DNA from: an archaeon
Lineage (GTDB): Archaea; Iainarchaeota; Iainarchaeia; Iainarchaeales; Iainarchaeaceae
Length of the DNA: 11,196 nucleotides
Assembly (NCBI GenBank): GCA_035289485.1
Contig: DATDXA010000008.1
Coordinates: 1 to 11,196, forward strand
Direction of reading: 5' to 3'
The number at the start of each line of letters is the position of its first letter. Positions within the stretch are counted from its first letter, which is position 1. This document shows positions 1-11,196 of this stretch, one piece after another. Under the pieces are notes generated by a model that was given only the letters and a program-made list of their open reading frames with translations, was not told where the DNA came from and did no database searches. A program made the translations under genes and the position numbers.

Positions 1-588
1 CTCTTCCTTTGCGCCCTTTTTCTTGGAAACTTTCTTTGCCGTTCCCTTCGGTGCATTGATTTCGCGAATCATCTTCGCAGCCTTGCGAAGTCCTTTCTTT
101 AGAAGCTCCTCATTTTTAGCGCCCGCGCAAATAAGCTTCCCGTTTTTGAACAAGAGAAGCGTTAGCTTTGGGTCGTGAATTCTAAGAATCGCACCAGGGA
201 ACTGCTCTGGTTCGTACTCAACGTTATCTGATTCCATTGCAGTCTTGAACAAATCAAGAGTCATCTTAAGGTTTGCAGTTGTTACAAGGTTGACAACCGT
301 GTAATCAGCGTTCTTCTGGACCTTCACGCTCTTTTGTATTTCGTGAATCATCTTCGATGCCTTATATATCGCCATCGGTATTTGCGATTCAGAGCTCGCT
401 CCTGAGCAGATGACTTTTCCGTTCTTGAAAAGAAGCATTGAAACTTTCGGCTCTTTAAGTTTTAATATCGCTCCCGGAAACTGTTCGGGCTCGTATTCGA
501 CATTAGGAATGGAGATTGCAAGATTGTAAAGGTCTATTGTGGTATTGAGATTGGCCGATGCCACGATGTTGACGATTGTATACTGCAT
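1..588 (-). CDS. tbp: TATA-box-binding protein (3' end truncated by window edge)
   Basis: Manual translation from ATG at 588: MQYTIVNIVASANL...VEYEPEQFPGAILKLKEPKVSMLLFKNGKVICSGA...VVNLVTTANL...VEYEPEQFPGAILRIHDPKLTLLLFKNGKLICAGAK. These are the two direct TBP repeats with YEPEQFPG signatures. The frame is open for 196 codons to position 1. Confidence 0.97.
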   Translation of the reverse strand, partial: MQYTIVNIVASANLNTTIDLYNLAISIPNVEYEPEQFPGAILKLKEPKVSMLLFKNGKVICSGASSESQIPMAIYKASKMIHEIQKSVKVQKNADYTVVNLVTTANLKMTLDLFKTAMESDNVEYEPEQFPGAILRIHDPKLTLLLFKNGKLICAGAKNEELLKKGLRKAAKMIREINAPKGTAKKVSKKKGAKEE

Positions 589-2166: not shown

Positions 2167-2994
2167 ATGACACTTCTCTTTGAGCTGCAGGGCCTGATGT
2201 TTGAGCACCGGTTCAGGCCAAACCACGCAATGGGGCAGAACTTTATCATCAGCGAATCGCTTCTGAACCGGATGATAGAGGTCGCTGAGCTGAAAAAAAC
2301 CGACATCGTTCTTGAAATCGGCTGCGGCACAGGTTTTCTCACGCGCAAGCTTTTGGAGCACTGCAAGGTCGTGGGCTTTGAGAAGGATGAAAAAATGGTT
2401 GAAATTCTAAAGAAAAATTTCGGCGAAAACAAAAACTTCACGCTCATTGAAGAAGATTTTCTTTCATCAAAGCCGCCCAAGTTCAACAAAATTGTTTCGC
2501 TTCCGCCCTATGGCATCTCAACCGACCTTGCAATAAGCGTCTTCCATCACGCCCCGCAAAAGGCGGTTCTAGTGCTGCAAAAAGAATTCGTAGAAAAGCT
2601 CACAGCAGAGCCCGGGTTTTGGGACTACAATTATGTTTCCGTTCTCACTTCTCTTCGCTACACCCCTTCAACTCCTATAAGAAATCTGCAGCCGCGGTGC
2701 TTTTACCCATCTCCAGATTCATTCTCCTCGCTTGTGGTTCTTGATGCCAAAAAAAAGCAGCCAAAAATTAAGAACGAAGACGATTTTGTGTACTTTCTCA
2801 AAACAGTTTTCCGATACAAGAACAAGAACCTCTCAAACGCGATAAGAAATGCCGTTCCAGACATTGCAAAGCGCATGAAAATACACAAAGAAAAGGCGCT
2901 TGAAACCGTTCTCACAAGCGGCCTAGCTGAGGACAAGGTGAGCGTAATAGAGCCTGAAATATTTGCGGAAATCTTCACGAGAATTTCTCAATAA
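2167..2994 (+). CDS. rsmA: 16S rRNA m6,6A dimethyltransferase KsgA/Dim1 family (divergent motif IV)
   Basis: GQNFII, the SAM-binding VLEIGCGTGFLT, LQKEF and FYPSP, plus synteny after DUF655. Motif IV reads VSLPPY instead of NLPY. Confidence 0.9.
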   Translation: MTLLFELQGLMFEHRFRPNHAMGQNFIISESLLNRMIEVAELKKTDIVLEIGCGTGFLTRKLLEHCKVVGFEKDEKMVEILKKNFGENKNFTLIEEDFLSSKPPKFNKIVSLPPYGISTDLAISVFHHAPQKAVLVLQKEFVEKLTAEPGFWDYNYVSVLTSLRYTPSTPIRNLQPRCFYPSPDSFSSLVVLDAKKKQPKIKNEDDFVYFLKTVFRYKNKNLSNAIRNAVPDIAKRMKIHKEKALETVLTSGLAEDKVSVIEPEIFAEIFTRISQ

Positions 2995-4504
2995 TAATTT
3001 TGCCAAATTCCACAACCTGGCGCTCCATTGCTATTGCATATGCCGCAGATAGCTTCTCTTCGTTTTCTGCAAAAATCTCATAAAGAAGCTGCCCCTTGCT
3101 CGCTTTCGAACCAGGTTCGACATTTAGCATAACTCCCGCCTTGGGGTTTGCAGGCGCGCCTGCAGTGCGCGCGATTTTATTCAGCAAGCCCACATTGATG
3201 ATGCTTATTACCCCGGTCTGAGACGCAAAAACCTGCCTTTTGAACTGCGCTGGCGTGATTTGCTCTGAAGAAGTAATTTTCCCATCCTGCGCCCTTATGA
3301 TTTCCTTCATCTTTTCAAGCGCTTTTCCGGATTTCAAAAGCCAGTAGGCCTTGTCAAATCCCTTTCCTTTTGGAACATCCCCAACAAGCTCAAGAAGCGC
3401 CCCGGAAAGTTCAATTGATTTTTGCGCGAGATTGTCAAAGAATTTTCCCTCAAGCACCTGCAGCGCGTACTTGGCCTCTAGCGCCGGGCCAAATGCCCTG
3501 CCGCTTGGCTCCGAGCCGTTAGTGAGTAGCACCTCTACTTTGATTCCGAGCTTTTTCCCGACTTCAACAAACTTTAGCGCCATCCCCTCTGCAACTTCGC
3601 GAGATTTTATCTTCACAAATGACCCGACCGGAATATCAATTACGACAAACTTTGCCCCCACGCTCGCCTTCTTTGCCATTACGCTTGCAATGACCTGCCC
3701 TTCCGGGTCAAGCGAGAGCGGGTGCTCGATTTTGATTATCTTATCATCTGCGGGAGCGAGTTCGACCGCGCCGCCCCACACAATGCACGCATTCGTTTTC
3801 TGCACAACTTCCCTAATCCTATCAAGCGAGAGCGAAACATCCGCAAGCACTTCCATTGCATCCGCGGTTCCAGATGATGATGTAATCGCGCGTGAAGAGG
3901 TTTTTGGCATCAGATACCCAGCCGCAGCAATTATGGGGACAATAACCATTGTCGCCCTCCCATTTGTGCCGCCAACCGAGTGCTTGTCAACAACAATGCT
4001 TTTGGAGAACTCGATTTTTTTCCCGTTTTCTATCAGTGCCTTTGTCATGGAAACGGTTTCGTCAAGGTCAAGCCCTCTCATGTACACCGCAGATACAAAT
4101 GCAGCGGATTCAATTTCGCTCAGGCTGTTTGAAGCGATGTCCTCTACAATCTGCTTTATTTCCTCCGGGAACAGCTTTATTCCATCCATTTTTTTCTTTA
4201 TGAATTCAATGCTCTTGGGCTTTGCCGATGCCCTTGCCGTAATCATGTCGCCTTTTTTGACACCTAAAAGCGTGCACACTTCCTTGAAAAGCCCGACTTC
4301 GTCCTCGCGCACAATAGAATCTGTGATATCCACAACAACATTTACGGAACTTTTGTTCGAGGGGTTTGTGATTTGCGCGCGGTCCATTGGGAAAAGCCCG
4401 AGCTCGCGCGCATCCTTCTCGTGAAATATTGCGATAAGTTTTCCTGCCGCAAGGTCAACTTCTGCTACCCGCAGTTCCTGGCTGTACCCGTTTGAATTTG
4501 GCAT
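2975..4504 (-). CDS. AMP phosphorylase (archaeal thymidine phosphorylase family, NMP phosphorylase)
   Basis: 509 aa with the N-terminal extra domain of the archaeal type, DKHSVGG, PKTSSRAITSSSGTADAMEVLA, WGGAVELAPADDKIIKIEHPLSLDP, ASVMAKK and GPALEA. Overlaps the ksgA 3' end convergently by 20 nt. Confidence 0.93.
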   Translation of the reverse strand: MPNSNGYSQELRVAEVDLAAGKLIAIFHEKDARELGLFPMDRAQITNPSNKSSVNVVVDITDSIVREDEVGLFKEVCTLLGVKKGDMITARASAKPKSIEFIKKKMDGIKLFPEEIKQIVEDIASNSLSEIESAAFVSAVYMRGLDLDETVSMTKALIENGKKIEFSKSIVVDKHSVGGTNGRATMVIVPIIAAAGYLMPKTSSRAITSSSGTADAMEVLADVSLSLDRIREVVQKTNACIVWGGAVELAPADDKIIKIEHPLSLDPEGQVIASVMAKKASVGAKFVVIDIPVGSFVKIKSREVAEGMALKFVEVGKKLGIKVEVLLTNGSEPSGRAFGPALEAKYALQVLEGKFFDNLAQKSIELSGALLELVGDVPKGKGFDKAYWLLKSGKALEKMKEIIRAQDGKITSSEQITPAQFKRQVFASQTGVISIINVGLLNKIARTAGAPANPKAGVMLNVEPGSKASKGQLLYEIFAENEEKLSAAYAIAMERQVVEFGKIIIEKFS

Positions 4505-4534: not shown

Positions 4535-5275
4535 TCATTCCCTGATGCTAAGCGACATCGCCCACTCCATTGCGGCAAGCGAAAAAATCAGCGCCATTTC
4601 CTCTTTTCCAAGACGCCTCTCAGCCTTCTGGAAAAGCGGCTCCTCCTCATCTGGCCATTTCCTAAATGTTATTGTGCACGCGGCCCTCTCCGCAATTGTA
4701 ACCTTCTGGCTTACTGAAAAGTTCTGCCTTCTTGCAAAGAGCGGCAGCCCCAGCACGTCCGCACCGGTGATTTTGAGCCCGCTCTTCTCAAAGCCCCCGA
4801 TTTTTTTCCCCGCGGCATTGGAAATTGAATTGTCCAGAAAATTCACGCTGCCCGCTTCGCTCCCGCCGAGTTTTACTTTCATATCGCCTTTTGAGAGCTT
4901 TGCAAGTATTGCGCCAGATCCTCCGGAAAATTTCCCGAGAAAGAACCCTTCGGTTTCTGAAATGTCAACAAGCCTGCTAAGCTTTGTGAAATTTTTAATT
5001 TCGCCCTCGCAGTATGCGAGCACCGGTTTTGAGGCTCCAATTTTTCGGAACTCGAGCTGGAATTTTTTTGCAAAAAGCCCGCGCGAAAAATAATCCACAT
5101 CCGAGCTTACCAAATCAAATCCTGAGAAAAAATCCTCTTTCGAAACAGTTGATGCAAGCGGCCTTGTGCTTCTTTCGCGCGCAAGGTTGTGGAAAAGCAC
5201 AATCATCAGTATGCCGATTGTGAATGTTACAAGCGCGCCAAAAATAGTGAGTATTTCCTGAACGAACTCTGCCAT
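4535..5275 (-). CDS. Hypothetical protein with an N-terminal transmembrane anchor
   Basis: 246-aa ORF that fills the gap and is co-oriented with its neighbours. Hydrophobic ILTIFGALVTFTIGILMIVLF is followed by basic residues, a beta-rich Gly/Lys body and a hydrophobic C-terminal helix. AT-rich promoter-like upstream region. Confidence 0.8.
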   Translation of the reverse strand: MAEFVQEILTIFGALVTFTIGILMIVLFHNLARERSTRPLASTVSKEDFFSGFDLVSSDVDYFSRGLFAKKFQLEFRKIGASKPVLAYCEGEIKNFTKLSRLVDISETEGFFLGKFSGGSGAILAKLSKGDMKVKLGGSEAGSVNFLDNSISNAAGKKIGGFEKSGLKITGADVLGLPLFARRQNFSVSQKVTIAERAACTITFRKWPDEEEPLFQKAERRLGKEEMALIFSLAAMEWAMSLSIRE

Positions 5276-5374: not shown

Positions 5375-6085
5375 TCATAAAAGAAGCTGCGCGCACTGCT
5401 CAATTGCGGCCTTTTTCATGTTCTTAGACTCGTAAATCGCCCTTCCAACAATCGCATGCCACTTTTCCCCTGCTGCCTTGGCGGATTCGGAAATCTCCCC
5501 GCCCTGTGAAATCAGTCCGGGGGAGTAAAGAACCGGAGCCACGCCAAATGATTCTATATGCTTTTTGTATTTTGATATTTTTTCGGGCTTGTTTCCCGGC
5601 ACAACAAAATCGCGAACTCCCGCCTGCGCCGCAATTTCGTACATGCGCATTGGGGCGCTATCTTCCAAAAACCCGCCATCGGATTTCAAATATGATTCGT
5701 GAGTCATCTCTCCGCCAACAATTACCCCAAGCCCCGCCTTTTGGCACTGCTTAATCCACTCCTTCTCAGTTACCGGCCCTGCCTGAGGGAAAAGAATTAC
5801 CGCATCAATTCCTGCTTCAAAGCACACCTGCGCGAATTTCTCTCCGGTGAAAGGGACATCCGTTGCCGCCTTTTGGTGATCATAAATTATAGGCCTCATT
5901 GTGTACTTGCGCGCCGTGTTCACAACCTGCGGCAGGCCGTATTTGAGCCCTAGTTCAAAGCCGACTTTGTATCCTCCAATGCCCTTCACCGAGTCAACCG
6001 CCTTTACAAGGCTTGCAAAATCTGACAGCTCATCCATATCGCAGGCAGGAATTACGCTTCGCTTGAATGGGATTATGTCTTTCAT
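5375..6085 (-). CDS. pyrF: Orotidine 5'-phosphate decarboxylase (divergent active-site spacing)
   Basis: VIPACD, GYKVG, YDHQKAATDVPFT, SPGLISQGG and IVGRAIY, directly downstream of pyrE. Start set at ATG 6085 (MKDIIP), just after the pyrE stop and preceded by GGAGG. Confidence 0.87.
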   Translation of the reverse strand: MKDIIPFKRSVIPACDMDELSDFASLVKAVDSVKGIGGYKVGFELGLKYGLPQVVNTARKYTMRPIIYDHQKAATDVPFTGEKFAQVCFEAGIDAVILFPQAGPVTEKEWIKQCQKAGLGVIVGGEMTHESYLKSDGGFLEDSAPMRMYEIAAQAGVRDFVVPGNKPEKISKYKKHIESFGVAPVLYSPGLISQGGEISESAKAAGEKWHAIVGRAIYESKNMKKAAIEQCAQLLL

Positions 6086-6086
6086 T

Positions 6087-6704
6087 CTATGCGCCTCCCT
6101 GCCATTTCTCCGGATTTTCAAAATATCTTTTTGCATTCTCGTAATGCGCATCGTCGAGTTTTTTGTGCGCGTGCAATATCTCCAAAATTTCCCTTGCAGT
6201 GAAAACGGAATGCAATTTCAGGCTCTGCTTTGCAAGCTCTTCTTTCCCTCCCTGCTCCCTGTCAATCAGCACAAGAATGTCATTGACCTTGAGGCCCACT
6301 TTTTCAAGCGGCGCTATGGCCTCGAATTTGCTCGCTCCGGTTGTTATAAGATCATCAATTACAAGCGCTGTTTCCCCCGAAGAAAATTTCCCCTCTACCG
6401 CCGCCTTTGTTCCGTAGTCCTTCGCCTCTTTGCGCGGGAACACCATCCTGTAGCCTTTCTCAAGGCTTAGCGCAGTGGATATTGCAATCGCCGCAAACGG
6501 TATCCCTGCAATCACGTCGAATTTGAGAGGCTCTGCTTTCTTTGCAAGCTCCTTTGCAACCAGCCTGAGAGTTTTCGGGAATGAAATCAGCACGCGCAAA
6601 TCGAGGTATATCGGGCTCCTGAGCCCTGATTTTAATGTGAAAAGCCCGAACTTGACCGCGCCTATTTCCTGAAGCGAAATTGCAAGCTCTTCGCGGCTAT
6701 CCAT
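6087..6704 (-). CDS. pyrE: Orotate phosphoribosyltransferase
   Basis: GAVKFGLFTLKSGLRSPIYLDLR, the RKEAKDYGT loop, the PRPP motif VIDDLITTGASK and LIDREQGG. ATG 6704 lies 8 nt from a GGTGG SD; ATG 6710 is the alternative start. Confidence 0.96.
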   Translation of the reverse strand: MDSREELAISLQEIGAVKFGLFTLKSGLRSPIYLDLRVLISFPKTLRLVAKELAKKAEPLKFDVIAGIPFAAIAISTALSLEKGYRMVFPRKEAKDYGTKAAVEGKFSSGETALVIDDLITTGASKFEAIAPLEKVGLKVNDILVLIDREQGGKEELAKQSLKLHSVFTAREILEILHAHKKLDDAHYENAKRYFENPEKWQGGA

Positions 6705-7971
6705 ATACATTTCCACCAACAATAGTTTTTTCCACAAAGCCTTTTAACTTCCTCCCGTTGAACGGGCTGTACCCCGCCTTTGTAAATAGCTTCTCATTCT
6801 CAACTTTCCAGCTCTTTTTCATGTCCACAATCACAAGGTCGGCATCGAATCCCGCTTTTATGAGCCCTTTTGATTTCCAACCAAAGAGCTGCGCGGGCCT
6901 CTCACTTGCCGCGCTCACAACCCTTGCAAGCGGAATTTTCTTCGCGTTCATTGCATCAAGCATCAGCGGAAGCATTGTTTCAACCCCCGGAACTCCCGAA
7001 GGGCAGTCCGAGTACCCTTTCGCCTTTTCCTGCGGCGAGTGCGGCGCGTGGTCTGTTGCGACTATATCAATCGCTCCGCTTTTGAGCCCCGCAAACAATG
7101 CCCTGCGGTCCTTTGATGATTTTATGGAAGGGTTGCATTTTATCAAATTTCCAAGCTTTTTGTAATAGGAATTATCAAGAAAAAGATGCTGCGGCGCTGC
7201 CTCGCATGTGACCGCCTTTCCGAACTTTCCTCTCTTTCCTTTTTTCACGGCTTCAAGCCCTTTTTTTGATGAGAGGTGCGCGATGTGGAGCCTGTTCCCG
7301 ATTTTTCCCTGAATCTCAAGCAGGGCCTTTATCGCCTTCTCTTCCGCAACATCCGTGCGTATCTTCTCGTGCACCGAAGCGTCAGTGCGCCCCTTGAACT
7401 TTTCCATATTTTTCCTTATCTCCTCTTCATCTTCAGCGTGCGCCACAATCACAAGATTTTTTTCCAAAGCAAGCCTGAAGAGATTTTCAATTGAATCCCT
7501 TTTGTTGAGAAGAATATCCCCCGTAGTCGAGCCATAATAGAGCTTTACAGCGCGCAGCCCGCTCCCGCACGCATTTTTTATTTCCTCAATATTATCCTCA
7601 GTTGCCGCCATGTACAAATCAAAATTTACGGAAGCATCCTTTGCAATAAGATTTCTCTTTTCCGTGAGCGCTTGCAGAGTTGTTGTTGCGGGCTTTGTGT
7701 TCGGCATGTCCATTACCGTTGCAATCCCGCCATGAAGCGCGGCAAGAGAGCCCGAAACCCAGTCCTCCTTGTATTCAAGCCCCGGTGTGCGGAAGTGCAC
7801 GTGCGCATCAATTGCCGCGGGCAGAATTATTTTTCTCGAGCAGTCAATTTCCTTTTCCGCGCCGATTTTCTTTTTAGAAATTGCGGATATTTTTCCGCCT
7901 TCAATAAGGATATTGGCATATTCAATTTTGCCGTTTATAAATGCTTTTCCGTTGGTCAGGGATAGTTTCAT
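6697..7971 (-). CDS. pyrC: Dihydroorotase
   Basis: DAHVHFRTPG (HxHxR with the DHOase substrate Arg), DMPNTKP, HAED, HIAHLSS, KCNPSIK, ATDHAPH and GVPGVE. Overlaps the pyrE start. Start at ATG 7971 rather than TTG 7977. Confidence 0.92.
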   Translation of the reverse strand: MKLSLTNGKAFINGKIEYANILIEGGKISAISKKKIGAEKEIDCSRKIILPAAIDAHVHFRTPGLEYKEDWVSGSLAALHGGIATVMDMPNTKPATTTLQALTEKRNLIAKDASVNFDLYMAATEDNIEEIKNACGSGLRAVKLYYGSTTGDILLNKRDSIENLFRLALEKNLVIVAHAEDEEEIRKNMEKFKGRTDASVHEKIRTDVAEEKAIKALLEIQGKIGNRLHIAHLSSKKGLEAVKKGKRGKFGKAVTCEAAPQHLFLDNSYYKKLGNLIKCNPSIKSSKDRRALFAGLKSGAIDIVATDHAPHSPQEKAKGYSDCPSGVPGVETMLPLMLDAMNAKKIPLARVVSAASERPAQLFGWKSKGLIKAGFDADLVIVDMKKSWKVENEKLFTKAGYSPFNGRKLKGFVEKTIVGGNVYG

Positions 7972-8012
7972 GTTCAATAGGTTTTTATTGCAGGCAATAT
8001 TTAACTATATAT
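7972..8012. promoter_or_regulatory. 41-bp divergent promoter region between pyrC and the amidohydrolase
   Basis: AT-rich. Minus-strand TTAAATA (7998-8004) sits about 27-33 nt before the pyrC ATG, and plus-strand TTTTTATT (7982-7989) about 24-31 nt before ATG 8013. Confidence 0.5.
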
Positions 8013-9386
8013 ATGGGCAAACAAGGCACTTATTTGAATGGCCTGCTTAAGAAGCGAAGTCATACTCGCAGTCTTAAGCCTTTACACGCTCCGCCATTTC
8101 CCCATCCAGAACTACTGAAAAAGGAAAAAATAAATTCCGGTCGCCTCGCCAAAATCATAGGCTCCATACGCAGAATCGATGCCGTAAATCCGCATACTCG
8201 CATCACGCGCCTTGCCTTTTCAAATAATGAGGACAGGGCTTTGGGGATTGTTAAAAATGCGATGCAAAAGAATGGCCTTTCAGCCTGGTATGATTCTTTT
8301 GGCAATCTTCATGGACAGTACGGAAGCGGGGCACAAAAGCCGGTAATGATAAGCTCCCATCTTGACACCGTTCACAAGGGCGGGGCGTTCGATGGGCTTG
8401 CAGGCGTTGCAGTAGGCCTTGAGGCTCTGCTCTCAATAAAGGATTCCGGCATCAGGACAAAGCGCCCCATAAAACTGGTTATTTTCCGCGGAGAGGAATC
8501 AGTATCATTTGGCAAGCCCAGTCTGGGAAGTAATGCGGCCATTGGCGAGCTCACCGCGAAAGATTTGGCAAGAAAGCACGCCTTTTTGGAAGGAAACAGG
8601 ACATTGCGCTCATTACTCTCTTCAAGGGGTCTTAAATACTATCCCGACCAGAAAATAATCACGCCACATAATACTCAATCAAACCTTGAGCTTCATGTAG
8701 AGCAAGGAGGAAAGCTTGCCAGATCCCGCACAAGCCGAATCGCTGTAGTGGACAGGATTGCCGGCTCTAACAGGTTCTCGCTTGAATTCACCGGGGAAGC
8801 TACCCATTCAGGCGCCACTGAGATGGGTGTGAAAAACAGACGCGATGCGCTTCTTGCAGCCTCAAAAGCGGCACTGCTGGCAGACGAACTTGCACGGCAA
8901 GAATCTAAAAGGCTTGGCACTGACATCAAGGCAACTGTAACTGACTTGAAGGTAGTAGATGCGAACCTGACCGCCGTTCCCGGAAAGGTTCTTGCAAGAG
9001 TAGATGTTCGTGGTGTAAATGAACGTCAGCGTGAGGCATTTGTGCGAAAACTTCTAAGACGCATTAAAGAGCAGAGTGGCGAGAATCGTGTGGACATAAA
9101 GTTCAATCAGATTTCAAAATCGTCCCCCGGAAGGCTGCACAGCACCGTCAAATCTGCAATAAGGCGCGCTGCGCAAAAAACAGGGTTTGCACAAGAGCTG
9201 CGCACACTAGATTCCGGTGCGGGTCACGATGCAATAGTTCTCTCAACTGTCATCCCAAGCGGGATGATTTTCATACCAAGCGAAGGCGGGCTTTCCCATA
9301 ATTCAAGGGAAAAAACATACTTTTCGGATTTGCAGAAGGGCACAATTCTTGCAAAGCATACGCTCATTGAACTGGCAAACAAATGA
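8013..9386 (+). CDS. M20-family Zn-dependent N-carbamoyl-amino acid amidohydrolase (allantoate amidohydrolase / beta-ureidopropionase-like)
   Basis: TRLAFS, DSFGNL, SHLDTV, GAFDGLAGV, GEES, ELHVEQG, GEATHSGAT, RRDALLAA, VDVR, SGAGHDA and GMIFIPSEGGLSHN. The metal ligands look intact. Start moved to ATG 8013 because 7941 overlaps pyrC. Confidence 0.92.
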   Translation: MGKQGTYLNGLLKKRSHTRSLKPLHAPPFPHPELLKKEKINSGRLAKIIGSIRRIDAVNPHTRITRLAFSNNEDRALGIVKNAMQKNGLSAWYDSFGNLHGQYGSGAQKPVMISSHLDTVHKGGAFDGLAGVAVGLEALLSIKDSGIRTKRPIKLVIFRGEESVSFGKPSLGSNAAIGELTAKDLARKHAFLEGNRTLRSLLSSRGLKYYPDQKIITPHNTQSNLELHVEQGGKLARSRTSRIAVVDRIAGSNRFSLEFTGEATHSGATEMGVKNRRDALLAASKAALLADELARQESKRLGTDIKATVTDLKVVDANLTAVPGKVLARVDVRGVNERQREAFVRKLLRRIKEQSGENRVDIKFNQISKSSPGRLHSTVKSAIRRAAQKTGFAQELRTLDSGAGHDAIVLSTVIPSGMIFIPSEGGLSHNSREKTYFSDLQKGTILAKHTLIELANK

Positions 9387-9391
9387 TTAGC

Positions 9392-10264
9392 TTATTCCTG
9401 CCGCCACTCATAATATTCCTTAAGCGAAACGCGCCTGCCGCTCTTCAGGTATGCGAATTTCCCGAACTCCTTCATCTTTGAGAGCTCTTTTCCTGAAAAT
9501 ACCGGCCCATCAGCGCACACAAGCTTGTCATCGAGCACGCACTCGCCGCAAACCCCGATTCCGCACTTCATATATCTCTCAACCGATGCCTCAAAATTGC
9601 ATTTGTATTTTTGTGCTATTTCAAGCGCGCGCACCTCCATTATTTCAGGGCCGCACGCATAAATCATATCAAATTTTTCCTTTTTCAAGAGCTTCTCAAG
9701 CACCTGCACATTATATCCTTTTTCCCCGTAGCTCCCATCATCAGTTGTTATGTAGAGTTTTCCGCATCTTCCAAGCTCATTTTCAAAAACAATTCTCTCT
9801 TTTGTCCTTCCGCCAAGAATTATTGCAATTTTGCATTTGTTTTCCGCAAGCCTTTGCGCAAGGAGCACCACCGAATCTATTCCAACGCCGCCCGCAACAA
9901 TCGCCGCCTTCTTCACTCCTTTCACAGTGAAAGGCTTCCCATAAGGCCCGCGCACACCGAGCATGCTCCCTGCCTTTGATTCGAGAATTTTTTTGGTGGC
10001 GTTTCCCTTTGCCTCGATATTGAACGCGTATTTTTTTCCCCAAGGTATCAGTGCTATTGGCTTTTCATCAATCCCTGGCAGCCAGACCATGGCAAATTGC
10101 CCAGGTTCAAAGCTCATCTCCTCATCCATGTAAAAAGTCATGTTGCCCGCAAATTCCTCGCGTACCTTTGCGATTTTTACCATGCGCGTTTTTGTCCACG
10201 AAGGCCAATCGTTTTCATTGCAGCCGCAGCAATTGCAATCGCACCCTTCCTCACTTTTTTTCAT
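9392..10264 (-). CDS. pyrK: Dihydroorotate dehydrogenase electron transfer subunit (PyrK/PyrDII)
   Basis: EPGQFAMVW, GVRGPYG, VAGGVG, TTDDGSYG, YACGPE and the [2Fe-2S] motif ERYMKCGIGVCGEC...VCADGPVF. Start is ATG 10264 (overlapping the pyrD end) or ATG 10183. Confidence 0.93.
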   Translation of the reverse strand: MKKSEEGCDCNCCGCNENDWPSWTKTRMVKIAKVREEFAGNMTFYMDEEMSFEPGQFAMVWLPGIDEKPIALIPWGKKYAFNIEAKGNATKKILESKAGSMLGVRGPYGKPFTVKGVKKAAIVAGGVGIDSVVLLAQRLAENKCKIAIILGGRTKERIVFENELGRCGKLYITTDDGSYGEKGYNVQVLEKLLKKEKFDMIYACGPEIMEVRALEIAQKYKCNFEASVERYMKCGIGVCGECVLDDKLVCADGPVFSGKELSKMKEFGKFAYLKSGRRVSLKEYYEWRQE

Positions 10265-11171
10265 GCGCAATCCCTTTCAACTCACTTATTTTTGAATACC
10301 CTTCTTTCTTCATCCAATCTTTCATCTCATCGCAGGTTTTTTTGAAAACTCCTGTTCCGTGCTGCCAGACCGCGCTTCCAATCCCGCAGACAGTCGCTCC
10401 TGCCATGATGTATTCAAGCGCGTCGCGCCCATTGGAAATTCCTCCCTCACCGATTATTGGTATCTCTACTTTTTCATAAAGCTCGTAGACTATTTTCATG
10501 TTTATGGGCTTTAGCGCAGGCCCGCTCATGCCGCCCTTCTTGAATGCAAGTATAGGCCTGCGGGCATCAGCATCTATCAGCATTCCCGGCATCGTGTTCC
10601 CCGCGCAGAGAGCATCTGCTCCCGCCTCTTCGCATGCCTTGCCAACATTTACTGGAGAAGTTGCGGCAGGAGTTAGCTTTGCAATCACCGGGATTTTCCC
10701 TGCAACATTTTTCACGCTTGAAACAATCTTTGCGGAAATCTCGGGGTCAGCGGCGAATTGTATATCATGCCACTCAGTGTTGGGGCAGGAAATATCCAGT
10801 TCAATCATGTCGGGCTTTTTTTCCACAACATAGCGTGCAACTTCTGAAAATTCCTCCCACTTAGAGCCGTAAATGCTTGCAATGAGCGGAACCCCGATTT
10901 TTTTGAGCCCTTTTAGCTCCTCAAATTCCTCATCATAATTTTTGTATCCGGGGGTAGGAAGGCCAACAGCATTCAAAAGCCCGTGCTCCCATTCAATCAC
11001 AGTTGGATTATTGTGCCCTATGCGCTCGCGCGGGCCAATGCTCTTCATAGTTACCGCTCCCGCGCCCTCGCGCGCAACCCTTAGAAGCTGCCCGGCATTC
11101 ACGCCGAGTATTCCGGAAGCAAGCCGCGTGGGGTTCTTTAGCCGCACACCGCAAAATTCCGTTTCAAGCAT
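10251..11171 (-). CDS. pyrD: Dihydroorotate dehydrogenase catalytic subunit, family 1B
   Basis: LKNPTRLASG, GAVTMKS, LLNAVGL, ISCPN (catalytic Cys), IAKLTP, GNT and GGMSGPALKP, paired with pyrK. ATG 11171 follows the SD GGAGTGA. Confidence 0.95.
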   Translation of the reverse strand: MLETEFCGVRLKNPTRLASGILGVNAGQLLRVAREGAGAVTMKSIGPRERIGHNNPTVIEWEHGLLNAVGLPTPGYKNYDEEFEELKGLKKIGVPLIASIYGSKWEEFSEVARYVVEKKPDMIELDISCPNTEWHDIQFAADPEISAKIVSSVKNVAGKIPVIAKLTPAATSPVNVGKACEEAGADALCAGNTMPGMLIDADARRPILAFKKGGMSGPALKPINMKIVYELYEKVEIPIIGEGGISNGRDALEYIMAGATVCGIGSAVWQHGTGVFKKTCDEMKDWMKKEGYSKISELKGIAHEKK

Positions 11172-11196
11172 CTCAATCACTCCCGAGCATGCTCCC

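Follow-up and report, generated by a model that had tools for sequence, protein, structure and literature searches.

Introduction

Ureidosuccinase (EC 3.5.1.7), the hydrolase of N-carbamoyl-L-aspartate, belongs to the reductive orotate fermentation of Clostridium (Zymobacterium) oroticum, and its activity was described in the 1950s. Ring-opening amidohydrolases are usually paired with a carbamoylase. The closest solved carbamoylases considered here, those of Geobacillus stearothermophilus CECT43 (3N5F) and Rhizobium radiobacter (8C46), are members of the M20 family. Here we describe a stretch of 11,196 bases (the window), which is one complete contig (C8; DATDXA010000008.1) of an archaeal genome of 1.16 Mb that is 90% complete (GCA_035289485.1). 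The window contains a 1,420-bp insertion with one intact, reversed gene of the M20 family. It stands precisely where pyrK and pyrC once overlapped by ATGA, and both flanking reading frames are whole. The gene is a candidate ureidosuccinase within a known enzyme family.

The idea of a ureidosuccinase for carbamoylase genes in pyr rows is not new. An earlier account of this DNA made from its letters alone (the sequence-only reading) had proposed it for this locus and knew of no well-established gene for ureidosuccinase; the literature searched, apart from the main text and supplements of Vetting et al. (2015), which possibly bear on novelty, likewise gave none. What is particular to the window locus is the archaeal host, the inversion of the gene inside the sole housekeeping operon, and an insertion that is defined to the base.

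The Insertion between pyrK and pyrC

The features on which the argument depends are as follows.

7972–9391, no strand: inserted block of 1,420 bp that holds the M20 gene between a 41-bp spacer and 5 further bp (defined by aligning the junction with those of four congeners)
8013–9386, plus strand: M20 hydantoinase/carbamoylase-family amidase of 457 aa (P0001; TIGR01879 251.4 against a cut-off of 204)
7972–8012, no strand: divergent A+T-rich spacer of 41 bp in which each of the two genes has TATA-like boxes; candidate for a compact leaderless promoter acting in both directions
6697–7971 (frame to 7977), minus strand: pyrC, dihydroorotase (TIGR00857 366 against 279; ATG at 7971; single copy by tblastn)
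9392–10270, minus strand: pyrK, electron-transfer subunit of class 1B dihydroorotate dehydrogenase (NF000796 272.9 against 224, and a DHODB_Fe-S_bind domain)
10251–11180, minus strand: pyrD, catalytic subunit of class 1B dihydroorotate dehydrogenase (TIGR01037 339 against a cut-off of 270; single copy)

The arrangement given in the sequence-only reading is confirmed. The M20 gene is intact and inverted between pyrK and pyrC, its frame being open over 7941–9386 without an internal stop; its TGA stop (9384–9386) lies 5 bp from the TAA stop of pyrK (9392–9394, reverse strand), with which it is convergent, and 41 bp (7972–8012) separate the ATG of pyrC from that of the M20 gene. One correction applies to the pyrDK-to-pyrC span, as pyrD ends at 11180 and not at 11171. 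PyrK is 68–79% identical to PyrK of congeners.

Both ends of the window (1–141 and 11056–11196) are exact, identical 141-base overlaps with contigs C33 and C13, so that the assembly can be joined at both contig ends. Contig C13, which joins at the window end, adds pyrI and pyrB just upstream of pyrD. The full row is thus pyrB–pyrI–pyrD–pyrK–(M20, inverted)–pyrC–pyrE–pyrF, running on beyond the contig edge; apart from the insertion this row is conserved. By tblastn every pyr gene is present in single copy in the genome, and these genes constitute the housekeeping, biosynthetic set. The gene carB lies elsewhere in the same genome; the check for pyrB and carAB that the sequence-only reading had suggested therefore returned pyrB, pyrI and carB.

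The related loci show what preceded the insertion. In 24 of 26 related loci with a strong PyrK match, pyrC stands directly behind pyrK in the same orientation, and none of these 24 contiguous pyrK–pyrC loci gave an M20 match. The two exceptions have another gene order (L026) or no pyrC within 1.5 kb (L031). In four aligned congeners the TGA of pyrK and the ATG of pyrC overlap as ATGA, reading ...CAGGAATGA(C/A).., and in the window species pyrK ends ...CAGGAATAA (TAA stop) and pyrC begins ATGAAACTA 1,420 bp further. Evidently, the insert is 7972–9391, as defined to the base by the junction alignment. As a separate observation, the PyrK matches of two related loci carry one in-frame stop each, TAG in L022 (genome G014) and TGA in L031 (genome G035), which could be due to a pseudogene, a sequencing error or recoding.

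The gene is rare among relatives. No M20 protein match was obtained in 40 relatives (six of the genus, 16 more of the family and 18 more of the order), and among 214 other genomes of the class a single one, G099, gave a match, at 42% identity. The contiguity of pyrK and pyrC in relatives, taken together with the unlinked state of this closest homologue (see below), indicates that the gene entered this species alone and recently, and that its position is no conserved design.

An artefact of assembly can be dismissed. Logan contigs from public sequencing runs span the pyrC/M20 junction with zero differences in all four runs (X2, X3, X4 and X5), and the M20/pyrK junction is spanned without differences in two of the four (X2 and X4), of which X2 may be the source sample. 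A joint skipping the insert was found in no public contig among those listed.

Synonymous codon use of the M20 gene falls at the 4.9th percentile of 514 unfiltered long open reading frames (ORFs), and its G+C and tetranucleotide content are ordinary for the genome. Direct or inverted repeats of at least 12 nt flanking the insert ends were not found, and no mobile-element genes were seen. A 9-nt exact repeat (8016–8024 and 9374–9382) lies inside the gene ends, but by our estimate chance alone would yield about five such pairs in 1.7 kb, and a possible imperfect junction duplication, GGAAT(G/A)A, is too short to judge.

The Divergent Spacer

Genome-wide, 145 of the 725 long ORFs carry a TATA-like hexamer starting at −33 to −27, compared with 23 for a control interval, and only 139 of them have a Shine–Dalgarno-like word. 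The peak of hexamers 27–33 bases before the start indicates that the mRNAs are mostly leaderless. The spacer agrees with this pattern on both sides. For the M20 gene, TTTTTA and TTTATT start at −31 and −29 from the ATG at 8013, and TATATA starts at −28 to −25 from an in-frame TTG at 8034, which is an alternative start. For pyrC, TTAAAT starts at −33 from the ATG at 7971, or at −27 from the TTG at 7977. A scan for sigma-70 promoters and hairpin terminators was set aside as not applicable to an archaeon.

The position of these boxes suggests that the 41-bp spacer is a candidate bidirectional leaderless promoter, from which the M20 gene and pyrCEF would be read divergently as leaderless transcripts. 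The insertion would then have split the operon into pyrBIDK and pyrCEF, and the insert itself may have supplied the compact two-way promoter that now drives pyrCEF, formerly coupled to pyrK. Since the boxes of the two genes are interleaved, the two promoters may compete.

The M20 Enzyme

Family membership is clear from TIGR01879 (251.4 bits against 204) and PF01546 (Peptidase_M20, 66.3 against 24.6), and the best solved relative is the L-N-carbamoylase 3N5F (E 1e-47). The AlphaFold2 (AF2) model is confident except in the first 24 residues (mean predicted local distance difference test score, pLDDT, 88.8; predicted template modelling score, pTM, 0.86). The top 24 listed matches of a Foldseek search of the PDB (ranks 1–37) all belong to the carbamoylase family, with template modelling (TM) scores of 0.70–0.91. 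AF2 and Foldseek agree on the architecture of the family, a catalytic domain with an inserted dimerisation domain.

An alignment of 31 sequences showed that H116, D127, E161, E162, H228, Q231, H265, R333 and H405 are invariant. These residues align with the 3N5F motifs SHLD, FDG, EE, ELHIEQG, HxG, DxR and GAxHD. In the Rhizobium enzyme Glu131, Gln196, Arg291 and His385 hold the carbamoyl and carboxylate groups, according to PMC10952681. By alignment, the di-metal site and the catalytic Glu are preserved in the window enzyme, as are the Gln, His and Arg that in solved relatives contact the carbamoyl and carboxylate groups. We infer that the enzyme is probably active and would release CO2, NH3 and the free amino acid from an N-carbamoyl amino acid. 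A basic two-residue insert (GVKNRR) after the HSGAT motif is common to the window enzyme and its G099 homologue.

Homologues, Phylogeny and Gene Neighbourhoods

A word-indexed search of 5.8 billion proteins gave no match above 37% identity. An exhaustive HMMER pass over 1.84 billion cluster representatives gave one relative at 42% and all others at 38% or below. The 42% relative is the protein of G099, whose source label is Diapherotrites/Iainarchaeum archaeon; the neighbours of its M20 gene include genes with Pyr_redox_2, NusA-like KH, Alba and Na/H-exchanger domains. The pyr proteins of G099 and of the window genome are 44–69% identical. Set against 42% for the M20 proteins, this fits both an old vertical descent with many losses and a transfer within the class.

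The phylogeny that the sequence-only reading had suggested was built as a careful maximum-likelihood tree (IQ-TREE, LG+G4, 80 rows), with support given as ultrafast bootstrap / Shimodaira–Hasegawa approximate likelihood-ratio test (SH-aLRT). As two quick trees disagree with it on the deep branches, only the careful tree and its support values were relied on. In this tree the window enzyme pairs with the G099 homologue (100/99), and the pair falls within a nine-row group (81/94) together with P0025, two haloarchaeal pyrE-linked genes and a clade of L055, L049, L090 and L115. Of the seven other group rows with known context, six adjoin pyrE or pyrK–pyrD (L067, L097, L055, L049, L090 and L115). 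Pyr adjacency was found in none of the 27 locus rows among 29 rows drawn from the other part of the first tree, L151 being one of them.

The homologues linked to dihydropyrimidinase and PreA form a separate clade (100/100). Forcing the pair into this clade costs 48 log-likelihood units, with a p value of 0.046 in the approximately unbiased test, which is borderline, the group having been named after the tree was seen. A comparison of pocket and loop residues between pyr-linked and other homologues yielded no common signature. An Arg two residues past a conserved Pro, in PGRL of the window enzyme and PARM of L055 and L115, is anecdotal.

A locus search of genome contigs with the single protein as query found no relative, and an alignment query was needed. 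The 160 homologue loci collected in this way, 80 from genomes and 80 from metagenomes, are a sample, and the true totals are at least those given here. PyrK- and pyrD-type genes adjoin the M20 gene in three of the 80 listed genome loci (L055, L063 and L115), and pyrE or pyrR adjoins it in six further ones (L038, L040, L049, L067, L090 and L097). Seven further listed genome loci have dihydropyrimidinase and PreA-like neighbours, a label confirmed in both of the two that were tested. Pyr neighbours were also seen in four of the 80 listed metagenome loci: L122 and L168 (pyrE-like), L127, and L151, in which pyrD and pyrE lie 3.4 kb upstream of the M20 homologue. The carbamoylase homologue of L127 (498–3910) is convergent with a dihydroorotase and aspartate carbamoyltransferase pair.

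The most complete bacterial cassette is L063 (1092–11753) of Halalkalibacter oceani, which comprises DctPQM of a tripartite ATP-independent periplasmic (TRAP) transporter, a PucR regulator, the M20 enzyme, PyrK, PyrD, a cyclic amidohydrolase and a PGA_cap protein. Its cyclic amidohydrolase scores above the cut-offs of both allantoinase and pyrC_multi. The best solved relative of the TRAP binding protein is 4NN3, which is described as orotate-bound in PMC11668362. According to citing papers (PMC5812351, PMC11668362), Vetting et al. (2015) reported orotic acid as a TRAP ligand. The pyr genes of L055 and L063 are second copies beside the housekeeping ones. In L067, too, the haloarchaeal homologue has a PGA_cap gene nearby.

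A different arrangement was found in Binatia. In L038 (1057–2956) and L040 (996–3003) the carbamoylase homologue stands directly before pyrR. In L038 it is also divergent from, and beside, the only pyrE detected in that genome, and hence lies between pyrE and pyrR. Binatia is thus a second case of a carbamoylase gene among housekeeping pyr genes.

Substrate and Alternative Explanations

N-carbamoyl-L-aspartate, the substrate of PyrC, appears to be the single most likely substrate of the M20 enzyme, which would then be a ureidosuccinase; this is a tentative assignment, to which we give somewhat less than an even chance. It is ranked slightly above an unrelated carbamoyl substrate combined with chance placement. 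Two Amidohydro_1 matches were found in the genome, PyrC and a TRZ/ATZ-type deaminase, and PyrC is the only cyclic amidohydrolase among them; no M20 gene other than that of the window was found in this genome, which is 90% complete. Given the usual pairing of ring-opening amidohydrolases with carbamoylases, PyrC is the only available partner. The M20 gene adjoins pyrC and has a common control region with it, and it lies beside genes for a nicotinamide adenine dinucleotide (NAD)-linked class 1B dihydroorotate dehydrogenase and a dihydroorotase, as a ureidosuccinase gene might, though these are single housekeeping copies.

With a reversible NAD-linked PyrDK and PyrC, orotate, dihydroorotate or carbamoyl-aspartate could be converted to aspartate, or excess intermediate could be drained. 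A more elaborate proposal is that a ureidosuccinase was captured in the sole pyr operon of a genome-reduced archaeon, where single-copy PyrDK and PyrC would serve both the synthesis of uridine monophosphate (UMP) and the breakdown of orotate, dihydroorotate or carbamoyl-aspartate to aspartate, ammonia and CO2, and where the 41-bp promoter would act as a switch between pyrCEF and the hydrolase. We consider this whole chain rather unlikely.

Several points weigh against a ureidosuccinase. The closest homologue is unlinked, the M20 gene of G099 being on contig C12 and its own pyrB–pyrD–pyrK–pyrC–pyrE row on contig C8 of that genome. A search of six other species of the genus did not find the gene, which is therefore accessory, and its placement may be chance. 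Support for the nine-row group is only moderate, and the deep branches shift between the two quick trees and the careful tree. Signatures of the main pyrK–pyrD-linked clade, HSGAVPRW and EESAWFG among them, are missing from the window enzyme. All equivalog models score the M20 protein below their cut-offs; that of the N-carbamoyl-L-glutamate amidohydrolase ErtE (NF058540), for instance, scores 278.4 against 520. Near-invariant R, P and N are replaced by S165, E270 and T321, the last being a Thr for the usual Asn of the (I/M)N-x-(V/I)-P motif, as in several of the best hits. In terms of metabolism, the presence of PyrB, PyrI and CarB means that a ureidosuccinase would be a futile cycle wasting carbamoyl phosphate unless controlled, and no orotate transporter was seen in the window. 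In the literature, no assay of any family member on carbamoyl-aspartate was found. Moreover, coincidences of this kind get picked from very many stretches of DNA.

A rival explanation is an ordinary N-carbamoyl-L-amino-acid or beta-ureido-acid amidohydrolase that acts on a scavenged substrate with no relation to the pyr genes. Its gene would have been transferred, placed by chance, and kept since its neighbours remained intact and its promoter DNA drives pyrCEF. This is a serious possibility, if short of probable. The species-specific insertion, the unlinked closest homologue and the atypical codon use all agree with it, as does the fact that the best solved relative, 3N5F, is a broad-range L-N-carbamoylase and that only the general family model is reached. 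A pyr neighbour is missing in 71 of the 80 listed genome loci and 76 of the 80 listed metagenome loci. Nevertheless, no hydantoinase, dihydropyrimidinase, allantoinase or PreA-type gene that could feed such an enzyme was found in the genome, and the tree places the enzyme among pyr-linked homologues. To hit one of about seven pyr junctions among roughly a thousand genes is also unlikely, taken alone.

The same atypical codon use, the restriction of the gene to one species of the genus and the three changed near-invariant positions could mean instead that it is a passenger without a role, recently acquired, perhaps not expressed and heading for loss. This is improbable, because the 457-codon frame is intact with all catalytic residues kept, the gene shows no difference between the contigs of four runs, which come from three studies or more, and TATA-like boxes stand at the canonical distance. 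The G099 relative keeps the same active site at 42% identity, which argues for long purifying selection. An enzyme of the purine branch, acting on allantoate or ureidoglycolate, is the least probable of the alternatives. The best NCBIfam model, NF006771, is named allantoate amidohydrolase (317.8 bits), and good structural matches include AtUAH and E. coli AllC; yet this score is below the cut-off of 399, the AllC model TIGR03176 gives 177.5 against 597.75, and no allantoinase-type gene was found in the genome. Since NF006771 also scores high on homologues from pyr cassettes (466.9 for L063 and 405.4 for L067), its name is a weak guide.

Taken together, these results leave the proposal of a ureidosuccinase in a reversible orotate pathway, as put forward in the sequence-only reading, with a mixed balance: it gains from the pyr-linked group in the tree and from PyrC being the sole cyclic amidohydrolase, and it loses from the unlinked closest homologue and the species-specific insertion. 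The tree does place the enzyme among pyr-linked homologues, with 81/94 and unstable deep branches. Repeated linkage to pyr genes, for which a survey of neighbourhoods had been suggested, was found in more distant homologues and failed in the closest one, as the G099 gene is unlinked and none of the 40 relatives carries the gene. The sequence-only reading had also stated that contiguous pyrK–pyrC in relatives together with unlinked homologues would speak for chance insertion. The contiguity, found in 24 of 26 loci, goes against the ureidosuccinase proposal, and the repeated pyr linkage of the more distant homologues is in its favour.

Other Genes of the Window

The remaining annotated features of the pyr row and its neighbour are the following.

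6087–6737, minus strand: pyrE, orotate phosphoribosyltransferase, downstream of pyrC (TIGR00336 135.8 against 106.8)
5375–6151, minus strand: pyrF-like orotidine monophosphate (OMP) decarboxylase, last of the pyr row (Pfam OMPdecase 56.1 against 27; NCBIfam models below their cut-offs)
2975–4504, minus strand: AMP phosphorylase (TIGR03327 552 against 535)

The order of pyrC followed by pyrE is also seen in relatives. The AMP phosphorylase gene, which has its own TTTAAA box at −30, adjoins the pyr row, so that genes of nucleotide breakdown and of pyrimidine synthesis are neighbours. Between it and pyrF lies an ORF of 246 aa (4535–5275, minus strand) with a hydrophobic N-terminal stretch and no Pfam or NCBIfam match. 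ORF listing and family scans identified TBP, RpoF, a DUF655 protein and KsgA as other genes of the window.

Significance and Comparison with Known Systems

If carbamoyl-aspartate is cleaved, the locus would add an archaeal example to the candidate ureidosuccinase genes, and housekeeping pyrimidine enzymes would be reused for breakdown without gene duplication. It would also be a clean natural experiment, in which a single gene entered a zero-length stop/start overlap with its neighbours preserved, and a new two-way promoter would keep the downstream half of an essential operon alive. Should the more elaborate proposal of a captured ureidosuccinase be true, the locus would be an archaeal counterpart of the bacterial orotate cassettes, without paralogues, and would offer a second, independent route to the gene for EC 3.5.1.7. 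Under chance placement, it is an ordinary acquired gene. Either way, carbamoylase genes are found next to pyr genes repeatedly and in several lineages that are not related, namely Acidobacteriota and Proteobacteria, Bacillota, Binatia and haloarchaea.

At the level of the enzyme, the nearest described systems are the L-N-carbamoylase of G. stearothermophilus (3N5F) and the N-carbamoyl-beta-alanine amidohydrolase of R. radiobacter (8C46). The window enzyme has in common with them the M20 two-domain fold (Foldseek E 1e-39, TM 0.70–0.91), the metal ligands, the catalytic Glu and the binding Gln, His and Arg. It differs by being only about 30% identical to them, by about 36 extra basic, low-confidence N-terminal residues, and by S165, E270, T321 and the GVKNRR insert, which belong to the window enzyme. 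The two solved enzymes work behind hydantoinases or dihydropyrimidinases, whereas none was found in the window genome. The M20 beta-ureidopropionase of the reductive uracil pathway, as represented by the dihydropyrimidinase/PreA-linked clade, has the same family and chemistry. It differs in having W in place of R254 and SGPFHD in place of SGAGHD of the window enzyme. As an identity for the latter it is disfavoured by its separate, fully supported clade and by a search of the genome, 90% complete, that found no further gene like those of PyrC or PyrD.

At the level of the pathway, the window resembles that of C. oroticum in that genes for an NAD-linked class 1B PyrDK, PyrC and a putative carbamoyl-amino-acid hydrolase lie side by side. 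It differs in that PyrDK and PyrC are encoded by the sole biosynthetic copies, in a row with pyrB and pyrI. The bacterial cassettes with pyrK, pyrD and a carbamoylase gene, and in part pyrC or pyrE (L063, L055 and L115), are similar to the window in that the M20 gene adjoins genes for class 1B dihydroorotate dehydrogenase, a gene resembling that of dihydroorotase, or pyrE. The window enzyme also groups with the L055/L115 clade at moderate support. In L055 and L063 there are pyr duplicates and a transporter, plus a regulator in L063. In contrast, the window has no transporter, regulator or duplicate pyr genes, and its carbamoylase gene is inverted in the housekeeping operon. The closest parallel in layout is therefore the Binatia locus.

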